Positions 1-60,552 of a stretch of 64,000 nt of DNA are shown piece by piece. The notes beneath the pieces are model-generated. The model did not search any database. It saw only the letters and a list, made by a program, of their open reading frames with translations, and was not told the DNA's origin. The position numbers and the translations under genes were made by a program. Each line of letters opens with the position of its first letter. Within the stretch, counting starts at the first letter, position 1. Location: the NCBI RefSeq assembly GCF_050920415.1, contig NZ_CP169309.1; one strand, written 5' to 3'. The stretch comes from Escherichia coli. GTDB lineage: Bacteria; Pseudomonadota; Gammaproteobacteria; Enterobacterales; Enterobacteriaceae.

Positions 1-21
1 ATTACCCGCTACGCCAGCAGA

Positions 22-684
22 TTAAGTATTTTCCAGATAATGCTTCAGTGTTAAACGCAGTTCCGGGCTCATGCTGTCCAGGTTATTAAATAACCAGCGC
101 AGATAGCCCGGATCGCGTTCGGCAACGTCGGAAACCGCTTTGCCACGGTATTTGCCAAAGGTGAAGGTCGTCATCAACGATGGACGTCCGGTGATATCGG
201 CCATCTGTTCTGCCGTCCAGCCGGAGGTGTTCATAATATCGATAAGCAACGCAGCGGTGATATAACAGTCATACAACGCGCGGTGATGATGCAGGCCCGG
301 CGGCGTCTGTACATTGAGCTTCCGTGTTTTATATAACGCCATATTGCTGTACTTGATCCCTGGCCACAGACGACGGGCCAGTTTCATAGTGCAAATCCAC
401 TCACCGGGCATCTCAGGCAGTACGCGGCGGTCAAAGCTGGCGTTGTGCGCGACATACCATTCACTACCGTAATAGTGCGGGATCACATCTTCAATCCACG
501 GTTTATCGGCGACCATGGCTTCGGTGATGCGATGAATCGCCATCGCCTGTGGACTAATAGGACGATCGGGGCGCACCAGGTGGCTCATGGGGTTGACGAT
601 TTTTCCGTCAATGACATCAACAGAGGCAATCTCAACGATCCCTCCCTGCAAACCGCAGGTTTCTGTATCGATAATGCGCAACAT
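22..684 (-). CDS. exoX: exodeoxyribonuclease X (DnaQ-like 3'-5' exonuclease)
   Basis: ORF 22..738 (-); translation from internal Met MLRIIDTETCGLQGG... matches E. coli ExoX (220 aa) as recalled; start placed at that Met. Confidence 0.9.
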   Translation of the reverse strand: MLRIIDTETCGLQGGIVEIASVDVIDGKIVNPMSHLVRPDRPISPQAMAIHRITEAMVADKPWIEDVIPHYYGSEWYVAHNASFDRRVLPEMPGEWICTMKLARRLWPGIKYSNMALYKTRKLNVQTPPGLHHHRALYDCYITAALLIDIMNTSGWTAEQMADITGRPSLMTTFTFGKYRGKAVSDVAERDPGYLRWLFNNLDSMSPELRLTLKHYLENT

Positions 685-707
685 GGCATGCTCCAGGCCG
701 AAAAAGC

Positions 708-1364
708 CTAGCGTAATGGAATGATATCGCCTTGCCAACCCTGTGATGAACGCTGACCGACTAACAATAATGAACCACGATCGGCGCGAACGATGAGACG
801 ACCATGTTCATCCCATAGTGCACTGTTACCACGGGCATTTGCCATCAGCACGGCAATTGAGTACTGATGTGAAAAAAATTGTAAGCGGCGGGTCGACGCC
901 AGCAGGTCGGGTTCCCCCAGACATTGCCCTGTCGTAAATAGTGAACAGGTCGGATCCATATCCATACCTTGCGGTTGTTCATCGACCACCGTGATGGTTC
1001 TGGAACGACGGCCCAGACATGCACCATGACTCTGATGGTAGATCCCTGGCGTTTTTCGCCACGGTGCGAACACCGCAATTCCACGAATAAAGCGATCGTT
1101 ATATTCAACGGGAAGGCCGGCAATGATGGTCATTCGCCAGGTCGTTGCAGCATAACAAAGCGGGTCTAACAGCGAGAGATCGGGTGGGGCAGGAAGGGCA
1201 CGTCGCGAATAATCACACCCCAGTAAAGAAAGCGATGGAAAAACTAACAGCTGACATTGTTGCCTGGCGGCGGCCCTCACAAACTCCAGATGATGAGCTA
1301 CCTGTTCAGTCAGTGAGGTTGTACGAGGCTCATATTGCGCTGCTGCGACTTTCCAGAACGACAT
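708..1364 (-). CDS. yobB: carbon-nitrogen hydrolase (nitrilase superfamily) protein
   Basis: ORF track 218 aa; position between exoX and holE as in K-12; identity recalled, not searched. Confidence 0.85.
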   Translation of the reverse strand: MSFWKVAAAQYEPRTTSLTEQVAHHLEFVRAAARQQCQLLVFPSLSLLGCDYSRRALPAPPDLSLLDPLCYAATTWRMTIIAGLPVEYNDRFIRGIAVFAPWRKTPGIYHQSHGACLGRRSRTITVVDEQPQGMDMDPTCSLFTTGQCLGEPDLLASTRRLQFFSHQYSIAVLMANARGNSALWDEHGRLIVRADRGSLLLVGQRSSQGWQGDIIPLR

Positions 1365-1465
1365 AATGACTTCCTTTTCAAAATGACTGTAAATTATGGG
1401 TGCGGTTTAGAAAATACTCATAATTTAGCAGGCGTTATGTAAGAAAGTGTAACTCTGTATAAGTT

Positions 1466-1696
1466 TTATTTAAGTTTGGGCTCGTAAGGTAAACGTGACA
1501 GATTGACCGAAGCCAAACGGTGGGCGATAAGCCGCTCGCGAAACCAGCTGCGCAAATGTTCAGGCTGTTCACGTTCAACCGCTTCAGCGATCACCGGCAT
1601 ATTGTAGCGTTCTTTAAATGCCACCCCGGCTGCCGCCAAATCGACATTCACTTTATCCATTTCTGTTTGATCCAGTTTAGCCAGATTCTTCAGCAT
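1466..1696 (-). CDS. holE: DNA polymerase III theta subunit
   Basis: ORF 1466..1783 (-); internal Met [35 protein letters not shown]... gives 76 aa matching HolE. Confidence 0.9.
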
Positions 1697-1834
1697 TCTT
1701 AATCTCCTCATCATTCGCGGGCAAAAGTTACTAAGAGTGAGCCTGGATGGCAAGCCGGAATTGATGATCCTCGACTCAGACATTAGACAAGGTTATGCTC
1801 TGTAAAAAAGTTATTACAAAAAGGAATAGATAAT

Positions 1835-2209
1835 ATGACTTCAACTGCACGCTCCTTTCGCTACGCGCTGGCAATCCTGACCACTACGTTGGTGACACCT
1901 TCCGTCTGGGCACATGCGCATTTAACGCATCAGTATCCTGCGGCAAACGCGCAAGTGACAGCTGCCCCGCAGGCAATCACTTTAAACTTCTCGGAAGGCG
2001 TTGAAACAGGATTCAGTGGTGCAAAAATCACGGGGCCAAAAAACGAAAATATTAAAACATTACCGGCGAAGCGGAATGAGCAGGACCAAAAGCAACTGAT
2101 TGTTCCACTGGCCGATTCGCTGAAACCCGGAACCTACACCGTTGACTGGCATGTTGTTTCGGTGGACGGGCATAAAACGAAAGGGCACTACACCTTTAGC
2201 GTGAAATAA
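1835..2209 (+). CDS. yobA: CopC-family periplasmic copper-binding protein
   Basis: ORF 124 aa with N-terminal signal peptide then HAHL... (mature N-terminal His typical of CopC Cu site). Confidence 0.9.
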   Translation: MTSTARSFRYALAILTTTLVTPSVWAHAHLTHQYPAANAQVTAAPQAITLNFSEGVETGFSGAKITGPKNENIKTLPAKRNEQDQKQLIVPLADSLKPGTYTVDWHVVSVDGHKTKGHYTFSVK

Positions 2210-2212
2210 ATC

Positions 2213-3085
2213 ATGCTGGCGTTTACCTGGATCGCGCTGCGATTTATCCATTTCACCTCGCTGATGCTGGTTTTTGGCTTCGCAATGTACGGTGCCTGGC
2301 TGGCCCCCTTAACGATTCGTCGCTTGCTGACGAAGCGTTTTCTGCGTTTACAACAGCACGCTGCCGTCTGGAGTTTGATCAGTGCCACTGCAATGCTCGC
2401 CGTTCAGGGCGGGTTGATGGGAACGGGATGGTCAGATGTATTTTCGCCAAACATTTGGCAGGCTGTTTTGCAAACGCAGTTTGGTGGCGTCTGGTTATGG
2501 CAAATTGTTCTCGCCCTCGTAACGTTGATCGTCGCCCTTATGCAACCGCGGAATATGCCACGTTTGCTGTTTATGCTCACTACCGCGCAATTTATTCTGC
2601 TGGCGGGAGTCGGGCATGCGACGCTGAATGAAGGGGTAACGGCGAAAATCCATCAGACTAATCACGCGATTCACCTGATCTGTGCGGCGGCGTGGTTTGG
2701 AGGATTACTTCCGGTGCTCTGGTGTATGCAACTCATCAAAGGCCGTTGGCGACACCAGGCTATTCAGGCGCTGATGCGTTTTTCCTGGTGCGGGCATTTT
2801 GCGGTGATCGGCGTACTGGCAAGCGGCGTGCTTAATGCATTGTTGATTACCAGATTTCCCCCCACGCTTACGACTTACTGGGGCCAACTCTTATTGCTCA
2901 AAGCCATCCTGGTGATGATTATGGTGGTCATCGCGCTGGCTAATCGTTATGTTCTTGTACCGCGCATGAGGCAGGATGAAAATCGTGCGGCTCCCTGGTT
3001 TGTGTGGATGACTAAACTCGAATGGGCGATAGGTGCGGTAGTGCTGGTGATCATCAGCCTGCTTGCGACTCTCGAACCTTTTTGA
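2213..3085 (+). CDS. copD: CopD-family inner membrane copper resistance protein
   Basis: ORF 290 aa, polytopic membrane protein, 3 nt after yobA stop (operon); matches YebZ/CopD. Confidence 0.9.
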   Translation: MLAFTWIALRFIHFTSLMLVFGFAMYGAWLAPLTIRRLLTKRFLRLQQHAAVWSLISATAMLAVQGGLMGTGWSDVFSPNIWQAVLQTQFGGVWLWQIVLALVTLIVALMQPRNMPRLLFMLTTAQFILLAGVGHATLNEGVTAKIHQTNHAIHLICAAAWFGGLLPVLWCMQLIKGRWRHQAIQALMRFSWCGHFAVIGVLASGVLNALLITRFPPTLTTYWGQLLLLKAILVMIMVVIALANRYVLVPRMRQDENRAAPWFVWMTKLEWAIGAVVLVIISLLATLEPF

Positions 3086-3097
3086 TGGATTACGAAA

Positions 3098-3439
3098 ATG
3101 ATGAAAAAAAGTATTCTGGCGTTTCTGTTACTCACCAGTTCTGCAGCGGCGCTGGCGGCACCGCAGGTGATTACCGTCAGTCGTTTTGAAGTGGGTAAAG
3201 ACAAATGGGCATTTAACCGCGAAGAGGTGATGCTGACATGCCGACCGGGCCATGCGTTGTATGTTATTAATCCGAGTACCCTCGTGCAGTATCCTTTGAA
3301 CGATATCGCACAAAAGGAAGTCGCCAGCGGGAAGACCAATGCCCAGCCCATTTCGGTGATTCAGATTGATGATCCTAACAATCCAGGTGAAAAAATGAGT
3401 CTGGCACCGTTTATAGAGCGAGCTGAAAAACTCTGTTAA
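3098..3439 (+). CDS. yebY: DUF2511 family secreted protein
   Basis: ORF 113 aa with signal peptide; third gene of yobA-copD-yebY operon. Confidence 0.85.
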
Positions 3440-3470: not shown

Positions 3471-3509
3471 AAAACCGCCTCAGTTCTTTCACCAGAACAG
3501 GCGGTTTTT
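3471..3509. terminator. bidirectional intrinsic terminator hairpin (yebY / RyeA)
   Basis: 10-bp perfect stem AAAACCGCCT...AGGCGGTTTT flanked by A/T runs on both sides. Confidence 0.6.
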
Positions 3510-3596
3510 AACATTTAAGCTGATGACCACCACGCTTTTTATTGACCATTTTGCACGCAAACTGGAAAACCTGGCGTCGTCATCTATTCTTAAAGG

Positions 3597-3699
3597 GCAA
3601 GGCAACTAAGCCTGCATTAATGCCAACTTTTAGCGCACGGCTCTCTCCCAAGAGCCATTTCCCTGGACCGAATACAGGAATCGTGTTCGGTCTCTTTTT
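3597..3699 (+). ncRNA. sdsR: SdsR (RyeB) RpoS-dependent sRNA
   Basis: Sequence GCAAGGCAACTAAGCCTGCATTAATGCC...CCGAATACAGGAATCGTGTTCGGTCTCTTTTT matches SdsR as recalled; sigmaS-like -10 TCTATTCTT at 3582..3590; 3' terminator hairpin plus T-run. Confidence 0.7.
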
Positions 3700-3833
3700 A
3701 TCTGTTAAAAGCCAGAAGCATTCCCTTCGCTGACTTTATAGTCAACCATAACACACACTCTACTGTCTGAGTCCAGCGTTTTTTAACATTCTTGTTAAGA
3801 TTATGTGATCTTTAGCGCGGGAGGAAAATATTG

Positions 3834-4490
3834 ATGAAACAGCCTGCGCCCGTTTATCAGAGAATTGCGGGTCATCAATGGCGACATATCTGGCTTTCAG
3901 GTGATATACACGGATGTCTTGAGCAGTTGCGCCGCAAATTATGGCATTGTCGTTTTGATCCGTGGCGAGATTTACTTATCTCAGTGGGAGACGTTATCGA
4001 TCGTGGGCCGCAAAGTTTACGCTGTCTGCAGTTACTGGATCAACGTTGGGTTCGTGCGGTAAGAGGCAATCATGAACAGATGGCGATGGATGCGCTGGCA
4101 TCCCAGCAGATGTCTTTGTGGTTGATGAATGGCGGCGACTGGTTTATTGCGCTGGCAGATAATCAACAGAAACAAGCGAAAACGGCGCTGGAAAAATGTC
4201 AGTATTTGCCCTTTATTCTTGAAGTACACAGTCGCACCGGCAAACATGTTATTGCCCATGCCGATTATCCGGATGATGTTTATGAATGGCAAAAGGACGT
4301 CGATTTGCATCAGGTCTTGTGGAGCCGCTCACGATTACGTGAAGGCCAAAAAGGGCAGGGAATTACAGGTGCTGATCATTTCTGGTTTGGTCATACACCG
4401 TTGCGCCATCGCGTGGATATTGGCAACCTACATTATATTGATACCGGTGCTGTCTTTGGGGGAGAACTGACTCTTGTGCAATTGCAATAA
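3834..4490 (+). CDS. pphA: serine/threonine protein phosphatase 1 (PrpA)
   Basis: ORF 3831..4490; metallophosphatase motifs GDIHG, GDVIDRG, GNHE visible; 218 aa from second Met. Confidence 0.9.
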   Translation: MKQPAPVYQRIAGHQWRHIWLSGDIHGCLEQLRRKLWHCRFDPWRDLLISVGDVIDRGPQSLRCLQLLDQRWVRAVRGNHEQMAMDALASQQMSLWLMNGGDWFIALADNQQKQAKTALEKCQYLPFILEVHSRTGKHVIAHADYPDDVYEWQKDVDLHQVLWSRSRLREGQKGQGITGADHFWFGHTPLRHRVDIGNLHYIDTGAVFGGELTLVQLQ

Positions 4491-17878: not shown

Positions 17879-17980
17879 TACAACCTCTTCTCTTTTTATG
17901 TTCGCTTAATCGTAGCGGCAATATGCGCTGAAGCAAGCGACTCATTCTGAAAAAGCACGAATATCGACATAGTTAGGCGC

Positions 17981-17997
17981 TGTTTAACTAACACATG
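17981..17997 (+). promoter_or_regulatory. candidate PhoP box of the mgrB promoter
   Basis: TGTTTA-actaa-CACATG (half-sites 5 nt apart) followed by TTTAAT -10-like hexamer at 18003..18008, about 40 nt upstream of mgrB. Confidence 0.45.
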
Positions 17998-18036
17998 CTA
18001 GTTTAATGACATAAGGTAGGTGAAACGGAGATTGGA

Positions 18037-18180
18037 GTGAAAAAGTTTCGATGGGTCGTTCTGGTTGTCGTGGTGTTGGCTTGCTTGCTGCTTTGGGCGC
18101 AGGTATTCAACATGATGTGCGATCAGGATGTACAATTTTTCAGCGGAATTTGTGCCATTAACCAGTTTATCCCGTGGTGA
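18037..18180 (+). CDS. mgrB: PhoQ-inhibitory small membrane protein MgrB
   Basis: 47-codon GTG-initiated [50 protein letters not shown] read by eye; absent from ORF track (<60 aa). Confidence 0.9.
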
Positions 18181-18254
18181 TATCATTTTTTCAGCACTAG
18201 ATTTTCTTCCTCTCCAGCAGTGGTAGAATAGCGCCTCTACTCAGAGGTGGTGAA

Positions 18255-18542: not shown

Positions 18543-19211
18543 TCCTTCCTCAATCTTGAGTAACCCCGTCGTTGAAGGGTTACTCAATTCATCCTGATTA
18601 TACGCACTGTCATGGTGCAACTGCTTCAAATTAAAACTCTGGTCTGACTTCAAATAATTATCATATTATTTATTTGCGTAACGGGATATCAGAAAAAGAT
18701 ATTTAGCCCATTAATTTATTAGGATGTTTACATCGGATTTGTGATTAAGCGTGTTATTATTTATTAGCGAAACGTTTCTCTCTTGATTTTTTTGCGCATT
18801 CATCAATTTTTCTTATTTTAAATTTACAATACCTTTGGCGATTGACTTCTCTTTGGGGTGATTGATAGCCGTTAACTGACTGTTTTATGAGAAAAAGTGA
18901 TATAACTTTTTATTCATTGCATAGCAGAAAATGTGATATTGCACGCACTATGTAATAACTTCTCCCATTGGCCTGGAACAACTGAACTTATTGAACTATG
19001 TTAGAAAATACGTCAGTTTAAGTATCTGCCTGAACTGGCAAGGTTAAGCACAATGATATATCGGCGCGTATTCCGTTGCATAAGTGTGCAAAAAAAGTGG
19101 AAGACGTATCGAGATTTGTGCGTCTGATCGAGACATGTTTAAAAATGGCTTGCCATAATTAACGTTGTATGTGATAACAGATTTCGGGTTAAACGAGGTA
19201 CAGTTCTGTTT

Positions 19212-19355
19212 ATGTGTGGCATTTTCAGTAAAGAAGTCCTGAGTAAACACGTTGACGTTGAATACCGCTTCTCTGCCGAGCCTTATATTGGTGCCTCATG
19301 CAGTAATGTGTCAGTTTTATCTATGTTATGCCTGCGGGCGAAGAAAACAATCTAA
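19212..19355 (+). CDS. yobF: small protein YobF
   Basis: 47-codon [50 protein letters not shown] read by eye, 12 nt upstream of cspC; absent from ORF track. Confidence 0.8.
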
Positions 19356-19367
19356 GGAATTTTTCAA

Positions 19368-19577
19368 ATGGCAAAGATTAAAGGTCAGGTTAAGTGGTTC
19401 AACGAGTCTAAAGGTTTTGGCTTCATTACTCCGGCTGATGGCAGCAAAGACGTGTTCGTACACTTCTCCGCTATCCAGGGTAATGGCTTCAAAACTCTGG
19501 CTGAAGGTCAGAACGTTGAGTTCGAAATTCAGGACGGCCAGAAAGGTCCGGCAGCTGTTAACGTAACAGCTATCTGA
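19368..19577 (+). CDS. cspC: cold-shock-domain protein CspC
   Basis: ORF 69 aa [20 protein letters not shown]... with RNP motifs. Confidence 0.97.
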
Positions 19578-19622
19578 TCGAATCCACTGATCTGAAGTGT
19601 GAATACGCTTCAATCTCGCTAT

Positions 19623-19649
19623 AAAGCCTCGTCGAATGCGAGGCTTTTT
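19623..19649 (+). terminator. intrinsic terminator of cspC
   Basis: stem AAAGCCTCG / CGAGGCTTT followed by TT. Confidence 0.8.
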
Positions 19650-19742
19650 ACTTTGCTTTATCTTCGCTCCTGGCATTCGGATATTTGCCCGCCGCGTGAT
19701 TCGCGTTACACTTGCGGCCTTTAGTATCCTGCCGGAGTTGTC

Positions 19743-21115: not shown

Positions 21116-21124
21116 GACAACGTC

Positions 21125-21345
21125 CTGACCGGGGTATCCATAAAACACACCATCGCCCCCAGCAAACATGCATACATGAACAACAAACCGCGATGATTTT
21201 CGCGTTCATGCAGGCATAGCGATTGATGTGCATATGGTCTCGCCTGACTGAAAGTGTTCAGTCCGTACGTGCCACGTTTTGCAACGAGTATGTTGACACG
21301 TACATTTCCGGAATCTGGAAATCGGCTACTCCCCAAATGAGGGCG
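21125..21345 (-). ncRNA. yybP-ykoY manganese riboswitch in mntP 5' leader (approximate bounds)
   Basis: Minus-strand motif GGGGAGTAGCC (complement of 21324..21334) typical of the yybP-ykoY class; long untranslated leader upstream of mntP. Confidence 0.5.
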
Positions 21346-21543
21346 CAACATTAACATATTTTTAGAATATAAAACAACTGTTGGGATATATTATTTCAGC
21401 AGTTAATTGATAACGATTTTCATTTAGATTTATATATCAATGAAACGTTAAAATAAATAACAAATAAGGGATGGGATAATATAGCCTAAGCTATGTCTGA
21501 TTATTTAAAATACAGCAAACATAGCTTTGGCTAAATTCATAAC

Positions 21544-24896: not shown

Positions 24897-25217
24897 ATTT
24901 TATGTGATGAAGATCCGTAATTTAACTTTCGATTAGCAGAAATTTCGAAAGGTAAAATATCCTTGTCACATTCGTTTGCAAAGGAAGGTAAATCTTTGCC
25001 AAATCAGATGTGTCTCTGATATGTTTAACTCCCGTTTAACAACCATGGAGTATAGGGCAGTAGCCCGCAGTATGGATCGTCACCGACGTCATTTCAGCAT
25101 CAGGCCTTTTAACGCCTGCTTTTCTGGCACTTTATGCCGCACCTTTCGTTTGCCTTTTGTCGTTACGCCTGCATTATTTCTGGCGCCGAATAGCTATTCC
25201 TTAAGCAGGAGCTTGTC

Positions 25218-37055: not shown

Positions 37056-38741
37056 TTGAAGAAGGTTTGGCTTAACCGTTATCCCGCGGACGTTCCGACG
37101 GAGATCAACCCTGACCGTTATCAATCTCTGGTAGATATGTTTGAGCAGTCGGTCGCGCGCTACGCCGATCAACCCGCGTTTGTGAATATGGGGGAGGTGA
37201 TGACCTTCCGCAAACTGGAAGAACGCAGTCGCGCGTTTGCCGCTTATTTGCAACAAGGGTTGGGACTGAAGAAAGGCGATCGCGTTGCGTTGATGATGCC
37301 TAATTTATTGCAATATCCGGTGGCGCTGTTTGGCATTTTGCGTGCCGGGATGATTGTCGTAAACGTTAACCCGTTGTATACCCCGCGTGAACTTGAGCAT
37401 CAGCTTAACGATAGCGGCGCATCGGCGATTGTTATCGTGTCTAACTTTGCCCACACTCTGGAAAAAGTGGTTGATAAAACCGCCGTTCAGCACGTAATTC
37501 TGACCCGTATGGGCGATCAGCTATCTACGGCAAAAGGCACGGTAGTCAATTTCGTTGTTAAATACATCAAGCGTCTGGTGCCGAAATACCATCTGCCAGA
37601 TGCCATCTCATTTCGTAGCGCCCTGCACAACGGCTACCGGATGCAGTACGTCAAACCCGAACTGGTGCCGGAAGATTTAGCTTTCCTGCAATACACCGGC
37701 GGTACCACTGGTGTGGCGAAAGGCGCGATGCTGACTCACCGCAATATGCTGGCGAACCTGGAACAGGTTAACGCGACTTATGGGCCGCTGTTGCATCCGG
37801 GCAAAGAGCTGGTGGTGACGGCGCTGCCGCTGTATCACATTTTTGCACTGACCATTAACTGCCTGCTGTTTATTGAACTGGGTGGGCAGAACTTGCTTAT
37901 CACTAACCCGCGCGATATTCCGGGGTTGGTAAAAGAGTTAGCGAAATATCCGTTTACCGCGATAACCGGCGTTAACACCTTGTTCAATGCGTTGCTGAAC
38001 AATAAAGAGTTCCAGCAGCTGGATTTCTCCAGTCTGCATCTTTCTGCAGGCGGTGGTATGCCTGTTCAACAAGTGGTGGCTGAACGTTGGGTGAAACTGA
38101 CCGGACAGTATCTGCTGGAAGGTTATGGCCTGACCGAGTGTGCGCCGCTGGTCAGCGTTAACCCGTATGATATTGATTATCATAGTGGTAGCATCGGTTT
38201 GCCGGTGCCGTCGACGGAAGCCAAACTGGTGGATGATGATGATAACGAAGTACCACCGGGTCAACCGGGTGAGCTTTGTGTCAAAGGACCGCAGGTGATG
38301 CTGGGCTACTGGCAGCGTCCGGATGCCACTGATGAAATCATCAAAAACGGTTGGCTACACACTGGCGACATTGCCGTAATGGACGAAGAAGGTTTCTTAC
38401 GCATCGTTGATCGCAAAAAAGACATGATTCTGGTTTCCGGTTTTAACGTCTATCCCAACGAGATTGAAGATGTCGTCATGCAGCATCCTGGCGTACAGGA
38501 AGTCGCGGCTGTTGGCGTACCTTCCGGCTCAAGTGGTGAAGCGGTGAAAATCTTCGTTGTGAAAAAAGATCCATCGCTTACCGAAGAGTCACTGGTGACT
38601 TTTTGCCGCCGTCAGCTCACGGGCTACAAAGTACCGAAGCTGGTGGAGTTTCGTGATGAGTTACCGAAATCTAACGTCGGAAAAATTTTGCGACGAGAAT
38701 TACGTGACGAAGCGCGCGGCAAAGTGGACAATAAAGCCTGA
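37056..38741 (+). CDS. fadD: long-chain fatty acid-CoA ligase
   Basis: ORF 36990..38741; known TTG start at 37056 giving (M)[15 protein letters not shown]..., 561 aa; AMP-binding motif [16 protein letters not shown]. Confidence 0.95.
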
Positions 38742-38760
38742 GCGTTAAGTCAGTCGTCAG

Positions 38761-38787
38761 ACGCCGGTTAATCCGGCGTTTTTTTTG
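38761..38787 (+). terminator. intrinsic terminator of fadD
   Basis: stem ACGCCGG / CCGGCGT, loop TTAAT, followed by TTTTTTTT. Confidence 0.85.
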
Positions 38788-60236: not shown

Positions 60237-60552
60237 TTTTATCGACGATGAGAACAACGTGCCCGGTGATACACCTTCAAAATTAAGCGTAGATGGCAAA
60301 TGGAAAACTTGCCTGCACGGCTTTCTTAATTTCAATGGCATATCAACAACTCATCCATAAAATTTGCATAATTAATGTAAAGACCAGGGTCGCCAGTAAC
60401 GCGTAATTCATTTGGCTGTAAGCGTGGTGTCATCTGCGTCAGGAAAATTAAACAGTTACTTTAAAAAATGAAAACGTAAAAAGGTTGGGTTTCGATGTAT
60501 TGACGGGTAAACTTTGTCGCCCGCTAAACATTTGTTTAAGGAATGATTAATT

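Follow-up and report, generated by a model that had tools for sequence, protein, structure and literature searches.

The mgrB gene in the Escherichia coli DNA analysed here (a stretch of 64,000 nucleotides, referred to as the window) very probably forms a PhoP-activated unit, in which a PhoP box at positions 17970-17986 replaces the -35 element and an extended -10 element, TGc-TAGTTT, lies 12 nt downstream of the box. A preliminary description of this DNA had likewise proposed a PhoP-activated promoter with the box in place of the -35 element. That much of the proposal stands, as no -35 element is present and PhoP dependence is documented in the literature, but the register of both the box and the -10 hexamer had to be revised. 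The analysis establishes which gene this is, where and in which register the box, the TG and the -10 hexamer lie and how well they are conserved, as well as the 12-nt geometry and the lack of a -35 element. The revised features of the promoter, preceded by the counterpart of an upstream site known from Salmonella, are as follows.

17937..17955, minus strand: orthologue of the second box of yobG, decayed as a PhoP box, with 14/19 identities with Salmonella; its PhoP function here is uncertain
17970..17986, plus strand: direct PhoP box, TAGTTA-GGCGC-TGTTTA, at about -41 to -25, where a -35 element would sit
17970..17975, plus strand: 5' half-site TAGTTA, divergent and of the "S2 submotif" type; CAGTTA in most other genera
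17981..17986, plus strand: 3' half-site TGTTTA, a perfect match to the consensus
17987..17998, plus strand: 12-nt spacer from the box to the -10 hexamer, ACTAACACATGC, containing the spacer and second half-site supposed in the preliminary description
17996..17997, plus strand: TG of the extended -10 element (TGn), overlapping the end of the spacer; IC 2.0, present in 82/82 sequences
17999..18004, plus strand: -10 hexamer TAGTTT (TAnnnT), aligned with the Salmonella -10 hexamer TAATTT (S1 mapping)
C18010/A18011, plus strand: inferred transcription start, placed by alignment from the +1 of Salmonella yobG; leader of 26-27 nt
18027..18030, plus strand: Shine-Dalgarno sequence GGAG, 6 nt before the GTG; mean IC 1.83 over 82 sequences
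18037, plus strand: start codon GTG of mgrB

The mgrB gene and its product

The open reading frame at 18037..18180 on the plus strand, read from the sequence itself, begins with GTG and comprises 47 codons and a TGA stop. Its coordinates are exactly those of the RefSeq coding sequence "PhoP/PhoQ regulator MgrB". The product scores 66.3 bits against the Pfam family PF13998 (MgrB; curated cut-off 27) and 89.9 bits against the NCBIfam equivalog NF007635 (cut-off 40), over residues 1-47 of a 47-position model, and it is 100% identical to MgrB of K-12 (b1826). The earlier assignment of a 47-codon frame with GTG at 18037 to MgrB is thus borne out by Pfam, NCBIfam, RefSeq and K-12 alike, and the frame is mgrB, far beyond chance. 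That it should have been invisible among the listed open reading frames, as was also remarked, is plausible, since 47 aa is below the 60-aa default of the program that lists them.

A 1-kb region around mgrB was found in 5423 of 5426 complete E. coli genomes. The gene is flanked by the divergent yobH and by yebO downstream, and the order yobH-mgrB-yebO is the same in the window, in K-12 and in Salmonella (L082). The GTG start is kept in all 81 related loci from other Enterobacteriaceae. An upstream ATG in the same frame, at 17995, runs into the stops TAA (18004) and TGA (18007), and therefore GTG at 18037 is the first possible start of mgrB. Several public MgrB entries of 58-64 aa (P0001, P0004, P0007, P0023 and P0026) are N-terminal over-extensions for which upstream starts were chosen; in the entries from Klebsiella aerogenes and Lelliottia, the GTG that truly starts the gene is translated as a valine within the protein.

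The protein displays the hallmarks of its family, namely a length of about 47 aa, an N-terminal KK, a hydrophobic segment and a conserved C-terminal periplasmic part that includes C39, W47 and the pattern ..N..IPW. In an alignment of 13 homologues the following residues are invariant: K2, K3, R5, W6, W20, Q22, D29, D31 and V32, followed by F34, F35, S36, G37, I38, C39, N42 and I45. The 47-aa MgrB peptide resides in the inner membrane, interacting with PhoQ and repressing it, and its membrane topology is taken from the same work (PMC2789325). Inhibition of PhoQ, and with it negative feedback on PhoQ/PhoP, was shown by Lippa and Goulian in 2009 for the K-12 protein, which is identical to the one encoded here (PMC2789325).

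Conservation of the promoter among Enterobacteriaceae

For a phylogenetic footprint we used 82 distinct Enterobacteriaceae promoters, which come from Escherichia, Citrobacter, Salmonella, Klebsiella, Enterobacter, Kluyvera, Kosakonia, Buttiauxella and Cedecea, among others. Invariant in all 82 are G17972, T17973 and A17975 of the first half-site, GTTTA at 17982-86 of the second, T17996 and G17997 of the TG, and A18000 and T18004 of the -10 hexamer. The whole GTTA stretch at 17972-75 is conserved at 96-100% and T17999 at 95%. Between these blocks, positions 17989-17995 of the spacer, which take in the CACA at 17992-95, are poorly conserved (IC 0.1-1.0). The hexamer TTTAAT at 18002-18007 is not conserved, the orthologous consensus at this place being CCTGGT.

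In all 76 orthologues that fit the strict arrangement of N6-N5-[GT]GTTTA, a gap and TGnTAnnnT, the gap between box and -10 hexamer is 12 nt, and the remaining 6 of the 82 promoters have the same geometry with one variant base. Variation is found within the half-sites and the hexamer. Across the orthologues the 5' half-site is CAGTTA in 58 cases, CGGTTA in 8 and TAGTTA in 3; the 3' half-site, counted over the 76, is GGTTTA in 50 and TGTTTA in 26. The -10 hexamers include TAACCT, TAATTT and TATCCT.

Register of the PhoP box and the -10 element

In Salmonella the mgrB orthologue yobG has a direct, DNase-footprinted PhoP box, ACAGTTACTCCTGGTTTAA, located 12 nt upstream of the -10 hexamer TAATTT (Zwir et al. 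2012; PMC3335776). This box aligns to E. coli 17969-17987, ATAGTTAGGCGCTGTTTAA, and hence TGTTTA at 17981-86 is the 3' rather than the 5' half-site of the E. coli box. Between 17986 and 17999 there are 12 nt, within the 11-13 nt of class II PhoP promoters. The hexamer TAGTTT agrees with TATAAT at only 3/6 positions. It is preceded by T17996 and G17997 and then by C, which is the arrangement of an extended -10 element, and the TG may contribute to promoter function. Upstream of mgrB, candidates for a -35 element at 16-18 nt spacing match TTGACA at no more than 1/6 positions. A generic sigma-70 scan did not call any promoter in front of mgrB, which is what one would expect where transcription depends on an activator and a -35 element is lacking.

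To score the box we used a PhoP weight matrix made from 36 footprinted boxes of Salmonella that did not include yobG. The sequence at 17969-17987 reaches +8.9 to +10.0 bits and ranks 42-59 among 127,964 window positions. This score is only moderate, as about 40-60 window positions score higher, and sequence alone would therefore not single out the mgrB box. With no more than 2 mismatches allowed, the consensus KGTTTA-N5-KGTTTA recovers 17970-17986, which has 2, whereas the 17-mer of the preliminary description has 5. The window has 83 single KGTTTA hexamers, as against about 66 in shuffles. The combination of a box (at most 2 mismatches), a 12-nt gap and TGnTAnnnT is found once in the 64-kb window, at 17970, where 0.03 occurrences are expected; at least one such composite was seen in 9 of 300 shuffles. 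The composite implied by the preliminary description, a perfect half-site followed at its offset by a hexamer with at least 5/6 matches to TATAAT, also occurs once, as against 0.34 expected. We also considered AGTTTA at 18000-18005 as a second half-site and rejected it: it lies 19 bp, not 11, from the first GTTTA and scores -1.9 to -6.9 bits.

The start of yobG transcription in Salmonella has been S1-mapped to a +1 located 5 nt after the -10 hexamer, which gives a leader of 26 nt (PMC3335776). By alignment, E. coli mgrB transcription probably starts at C18010 or A18011, which correspond to K-12 coordinates 1908792-1908793: the Salmonella +1 aligns to C18010, while A18011, located 7 nt after the -10 hexamer, is conserved at 91%. 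Kato et al., in 1999, reportedly put +1 25 bp downstream of the repeat, in which case it would fit the distance from 17986 to 18011. In the genome-wide TSS data searched, no entry or coordinate was found for mgrB, and a full-text literature search for the mgrB promoter sequence returned nothing relevant. The mgrB leader RNA has a predicted fold of -5.3 kcal/mol with a z-score of -0.6, and no significant structure was detected in it.

Alternative readings of the promoter

The preliminary description had PhoP bind TGTTTA-N5-CACATG (17981-17997), with TTTAAT (18002-18007) as the -10 hexamer and a start near 18014. The sequences that it named are all present where it placed them (TGTTTA at 17981-17986, ACTAA at 17987-17991, CACATG at 17992-17997 and TTTAAT at 18002-18007), TGTTTA is a perfect half-site and TTTAAT matches TATAAT at 5/6 positions, yet we consider this arrangement highly improbable. 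On the PhoP matrix, which the description had itself suggested as a check, its register (17980-17998) scores -1.5 to -7.6 bits, corresponding to the top 2.7-10.8% of positions and thus to background, against the positive values obtained for 17969-17987. CACATG agrees with the half-site consensus (T/G)GTTTA at 1/6 positions. Its only conserved bases are the last two, T17996 and G17997, which constitute the TG of the extended -10 element, whereas the CACA before them is unconserved and position 17993 is G in K-12. The hexamer TTTAAT lacks the critical A at position 2, is equally unconserved and lies 3 nt too far downstream. The description expected the start about 7 nt after TTTAAT; the start that we place at C18010/A18011 by alignment would lie 3-4 nt after it. 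The gap between box and -10 hexamer would be 4 nt, whereas functional direct boxes are found 12 nt (or 21-23 nt) from the -10 hexamer and a distance of 7 nt is inactive (PMC3335776). Finally, an IS5 insertion at -46 in E. coli K-12 was described as lying downstream of the PhoP site (PMC8483737). Position -46 corresponds to 17991 in the window, at a CTAA target of IS5; it is indeed downstream of 17970-17986 but would fall inside the box of the earlier arrangement.

Extended -10 promoters can function without a -35 element. One could accordingly regard TGcTAGTTT as an essentially PhoP-independent promoter, with the GTTTA repeat being incidental or modulatory only, and the invariance of the TG in 82/82 sequences would agree with such a reading. 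We give it hardly any credence, because the half-sites match the TG in invariance, the 12-nt spacing does not vary and the hexamer by itself is weak. Experimental data point the same way: the yobG transcript is absent in a phoP mutant of Salmonella (PMC3335776), the E. coli mgrB promoter is bound by PhoP in vitro in a gel-shift assay (PMC8355897), and PmgrB is PhoP-regulated in E. coli and serves as a standard reporter of PhoP activity (PMC2789325). PmgrB is also Mg2+-responsive (PMC1964800), and its activity has been reported to drop almost to zero when phoP is deleted. PhoP-independent expression had been named in the preliminary description as an outcome that would speak against it, and on this point the description holds, as the PhoP dependence of mgrB is documented (PMC2789325, PMC8355897). 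A different matter is whether the activated promoter contains one PhoP box or two. Salmonella yobG has a second footprinted box, in reverse orientation and further upstream (PMC3335776), and E. coli might have kept this two-box "architecture II", with the reverse site at 17937-17955 contributing to activation. The two sites align with 14/19 identities, and the block around 17937-17955 is well conserved in other genera, although it could be the divergent yobH promoter that is conserved there. On the PhoP matrix, however, the reverse box falls from +6.8 bits in Salmonella (GTTTTTAGGAATGATTCAC) to -5.6 bits in E. coli (CTTTTTCAGAATGAGTCGC), and position 17948 is polymorphic within E. coli. We regard a contribution of the reverse site as rather unlikely. 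The E. coli mgrB promoter may thus have only one functional PhoP box, and, with the second box unrecognisable, its architecture class may differ from that of Salmonella.

Proposed mechanism of mgrB activation

With a single box at 17970-17986 as the preferred reading, we propose that activation of PhoQ by low Mg2+, cationic peptides or acid pH would lead to phosphorylated PhoP, which would bind TAGTTA-N5-TGTTTA as a head-to-tail dimer. PhoP would then recruit RNA polymerase in a class II manner, through a contact that we infer, to the weak extended -10 element TGc-TAGTTT at 17996-18004. Transcription would proceed from about C18010/A18011 and yield an unstructured leader of 26-27 nt that carries GGAG and the GTG start. 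The resulting MgrB, a 47-aa inner-membrane peptide, binds and represses PhoQ and so closes the negative feedback loop on PhoQ/PhoP.

As a tentative extension, which we hold to be possible but somewhat doubtful, the invariant TG may be an essential design feature of mgrB that could offset the weak -10 hexamer and the weak first half-site and so set both basal level and gain of the feedback; in parallel, the second, upstream PhoP site used by Salmonella may have been lost in E. coli. If this loss were real, the feedback gene would be wired differently in E. coli and Salmonella. Neither the invariant TG nor the loss of the second site is mentioned in any of the papers searched, a set to which the primary E. 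coli promoter papers did not belong.

Other PhoP-like sites in the window

The window contains a further PhoP box at 25021-25039, aTGTTTAactccCGTTTAa, with 1 mismatch and a score of 11.5-13.7 bits, which lies 12 nt upstream of TATAGG. Within the region 25021-25056 the box is positioned 34 nt before the ATG (25072) of the leader peptide yoaL, which belongs to the CNNM/CorC-type transporter gene yoaE (mgpA). A sequence identical to this box is footprinted by PhoP in Shigella flexneri (PMC5775216), and the yoaL-yoaE site is thus real and already published.

A match closer to mgrB, CTTTTTATGTTCGCTTAAT at 17892-17910 on the plus strand, is located just upstream of the start of yobH (17878, minus strand) and scores 10-11 bits, slightly above the mgrB box. 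Its conservation is patchy, and it is either a candidate PhoP site for yobH or a T-rich stretch that matches by chance. We discarded two additional matches. The 1-mismatch consensus at 60533-60549, TGTTTAaggaaTGATTA, overlaps the ribosome-binding site and the GTG start (60553) of mipA and is probably due to chance; the near-identical reference strain carries a mipA annotated as frameshifted. The highest-scoring position of the entire window on the PhoP matrix, 1455-1473 (CTGTATAAGTTTTATTTAA, 15.1 bits, with TAnnnT 12 nt downstream), overlaps the 3' end of holE, a gene of the opposite strand, and has no plus-strand gene nearby. Probably this AT-rich match is due to chance, and it shows how unspecific the PhoP matrix is when used alone.

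Downstream region and remainder of the window

Between the mgrB stop and the ATG of yebO (18255) there is a second extended -10 motif, TGgTAGAAT at 18221-18229, which is strongly conserved across genera (GTGGTAAAAT, GTGCTAAAAT and GGTGTAGAAT). It is probably yebO's own promoter. No convincing terminator was found directly after mgrB, the first good hairpin being located after yebO at 18556-18587, and mgrB transcripts may therefore read into yebO. A hairpin is predicted at 18232-18252, with a 7-bp inner stem (CCUCUAC / GAGGUGG) and a 4-nt loop (UCAG), and it includes the Shine-Dalgarno sequence GAGGTGG of yebO; the fold of this region is no better than that of shuffles (z = -1.0).

Strain MFDS1022581 differs from the window by 5 mismatches over 46 kb, apart from a prophage. 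This prophage of about 43 kb, with baseplate, tail-fibre and recombinase genes, is inserted between yebY and pphA in MFDS1022581; the window is without it. We could rule out prophage genes at 1-3400 of the window, as the prophage is present in the reference strain only. The insertion point (about 3500-4000 in the window) adjoins the SraC/RyeA and SdsR/RyeB sRNA pair (3559-3703). The only Rfam matches in the window at the gathering threshold are SraC/RyeA, SdsR/RyeB, a cspA-type 5' UTR at yobF-cspC (19192-19652) and sroD (38700-38785). Upstream of mntP (21116-21540, minus strand), where a yybP-ykoY Mn2+ riboswitch has been described in E. coli, none was reported by Rfam at this threshold.

Significance

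As regards the gene, its start codon, its regulation and its function, nothing new emerges: this is the K-12 mgrB gene with its already known PhoP-activated promoter, and the role of MgrB as a feedback brake on PhoQ/PhoP is established. Loss of mgrB leads to colistin resistance in Klebsiella and to trimethoprim tolerance in E. coli, and often results from IS insertions in this promoter or leader (PMC8483737). What our analysis adds is the corrected anatomy of the promoter and, from the 82-genome footprint, the knowledge of which bases are constrained. The only mildly new points are that the TG of the extended -10 element is conserved without exception and that the second box seems to have decayed in E. 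coli, and no new question of consequence is opened.

Comparison with known PhoP-activated promoters

Among the closest known systems is the K-12 gene itself (mgrB, also yobG, b1826; promoter mgrBp), in which the protein, box, TG, -10 hexamer, leader and GTG start are identical and the neighbours yobH and yebO are the same. K-12 differs from the window at two sites of the 158-bp yobH-mgrB intergenic region, 17948 (T in the window, C in K-12) and 17993 (A in the window, G in K-12). Neither of these is part of a conserved element, and through the second the CACATG of the window becomes CGCATG in K-12.

Salmonella enterica yobG, the "architecture II" promoter, shares with mgrB the direct box, the 12 nt to a weak TAnnnT hexamer, the TGn and the GTG start. 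Its box, CAGTTA-N5-GGTTTA, likewise has a divergent first half-site, and TGn stands before its weak -10 hexamer TAATTT. In E. coli the leader is longer than that of yobG by 1 nt.

The "architecture I" promoters mgtA, phoP, slyB and yrbL resemble mgrB in having a direct box over the -35 position, 12 nt upstream of the -10 hexamer, in a class II arrangement. They differ in the quality of the box, as they contain two good (T/G)GTTTA half-sites, with values of 0.88-0.98 in the scheme of Zwir, whereas the first half-site of mgrB is of the form xAGTTA and yobG has a value of 0.66. This divergent first half-site explains why PhoP scans that rely on the strict consensus miss the mgrB site or place it in the wrong register, and mgrB is absent from a 38-site PhoP scan in Shigella (PMC5775216). 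The yoaL-yoaE (mgpA) promoter of the same window has the geometry of mgrB, with a direct box and a 12-nt gap to the -10-like TATAGG, but its box is near-perfect, unlike that of mgrB.
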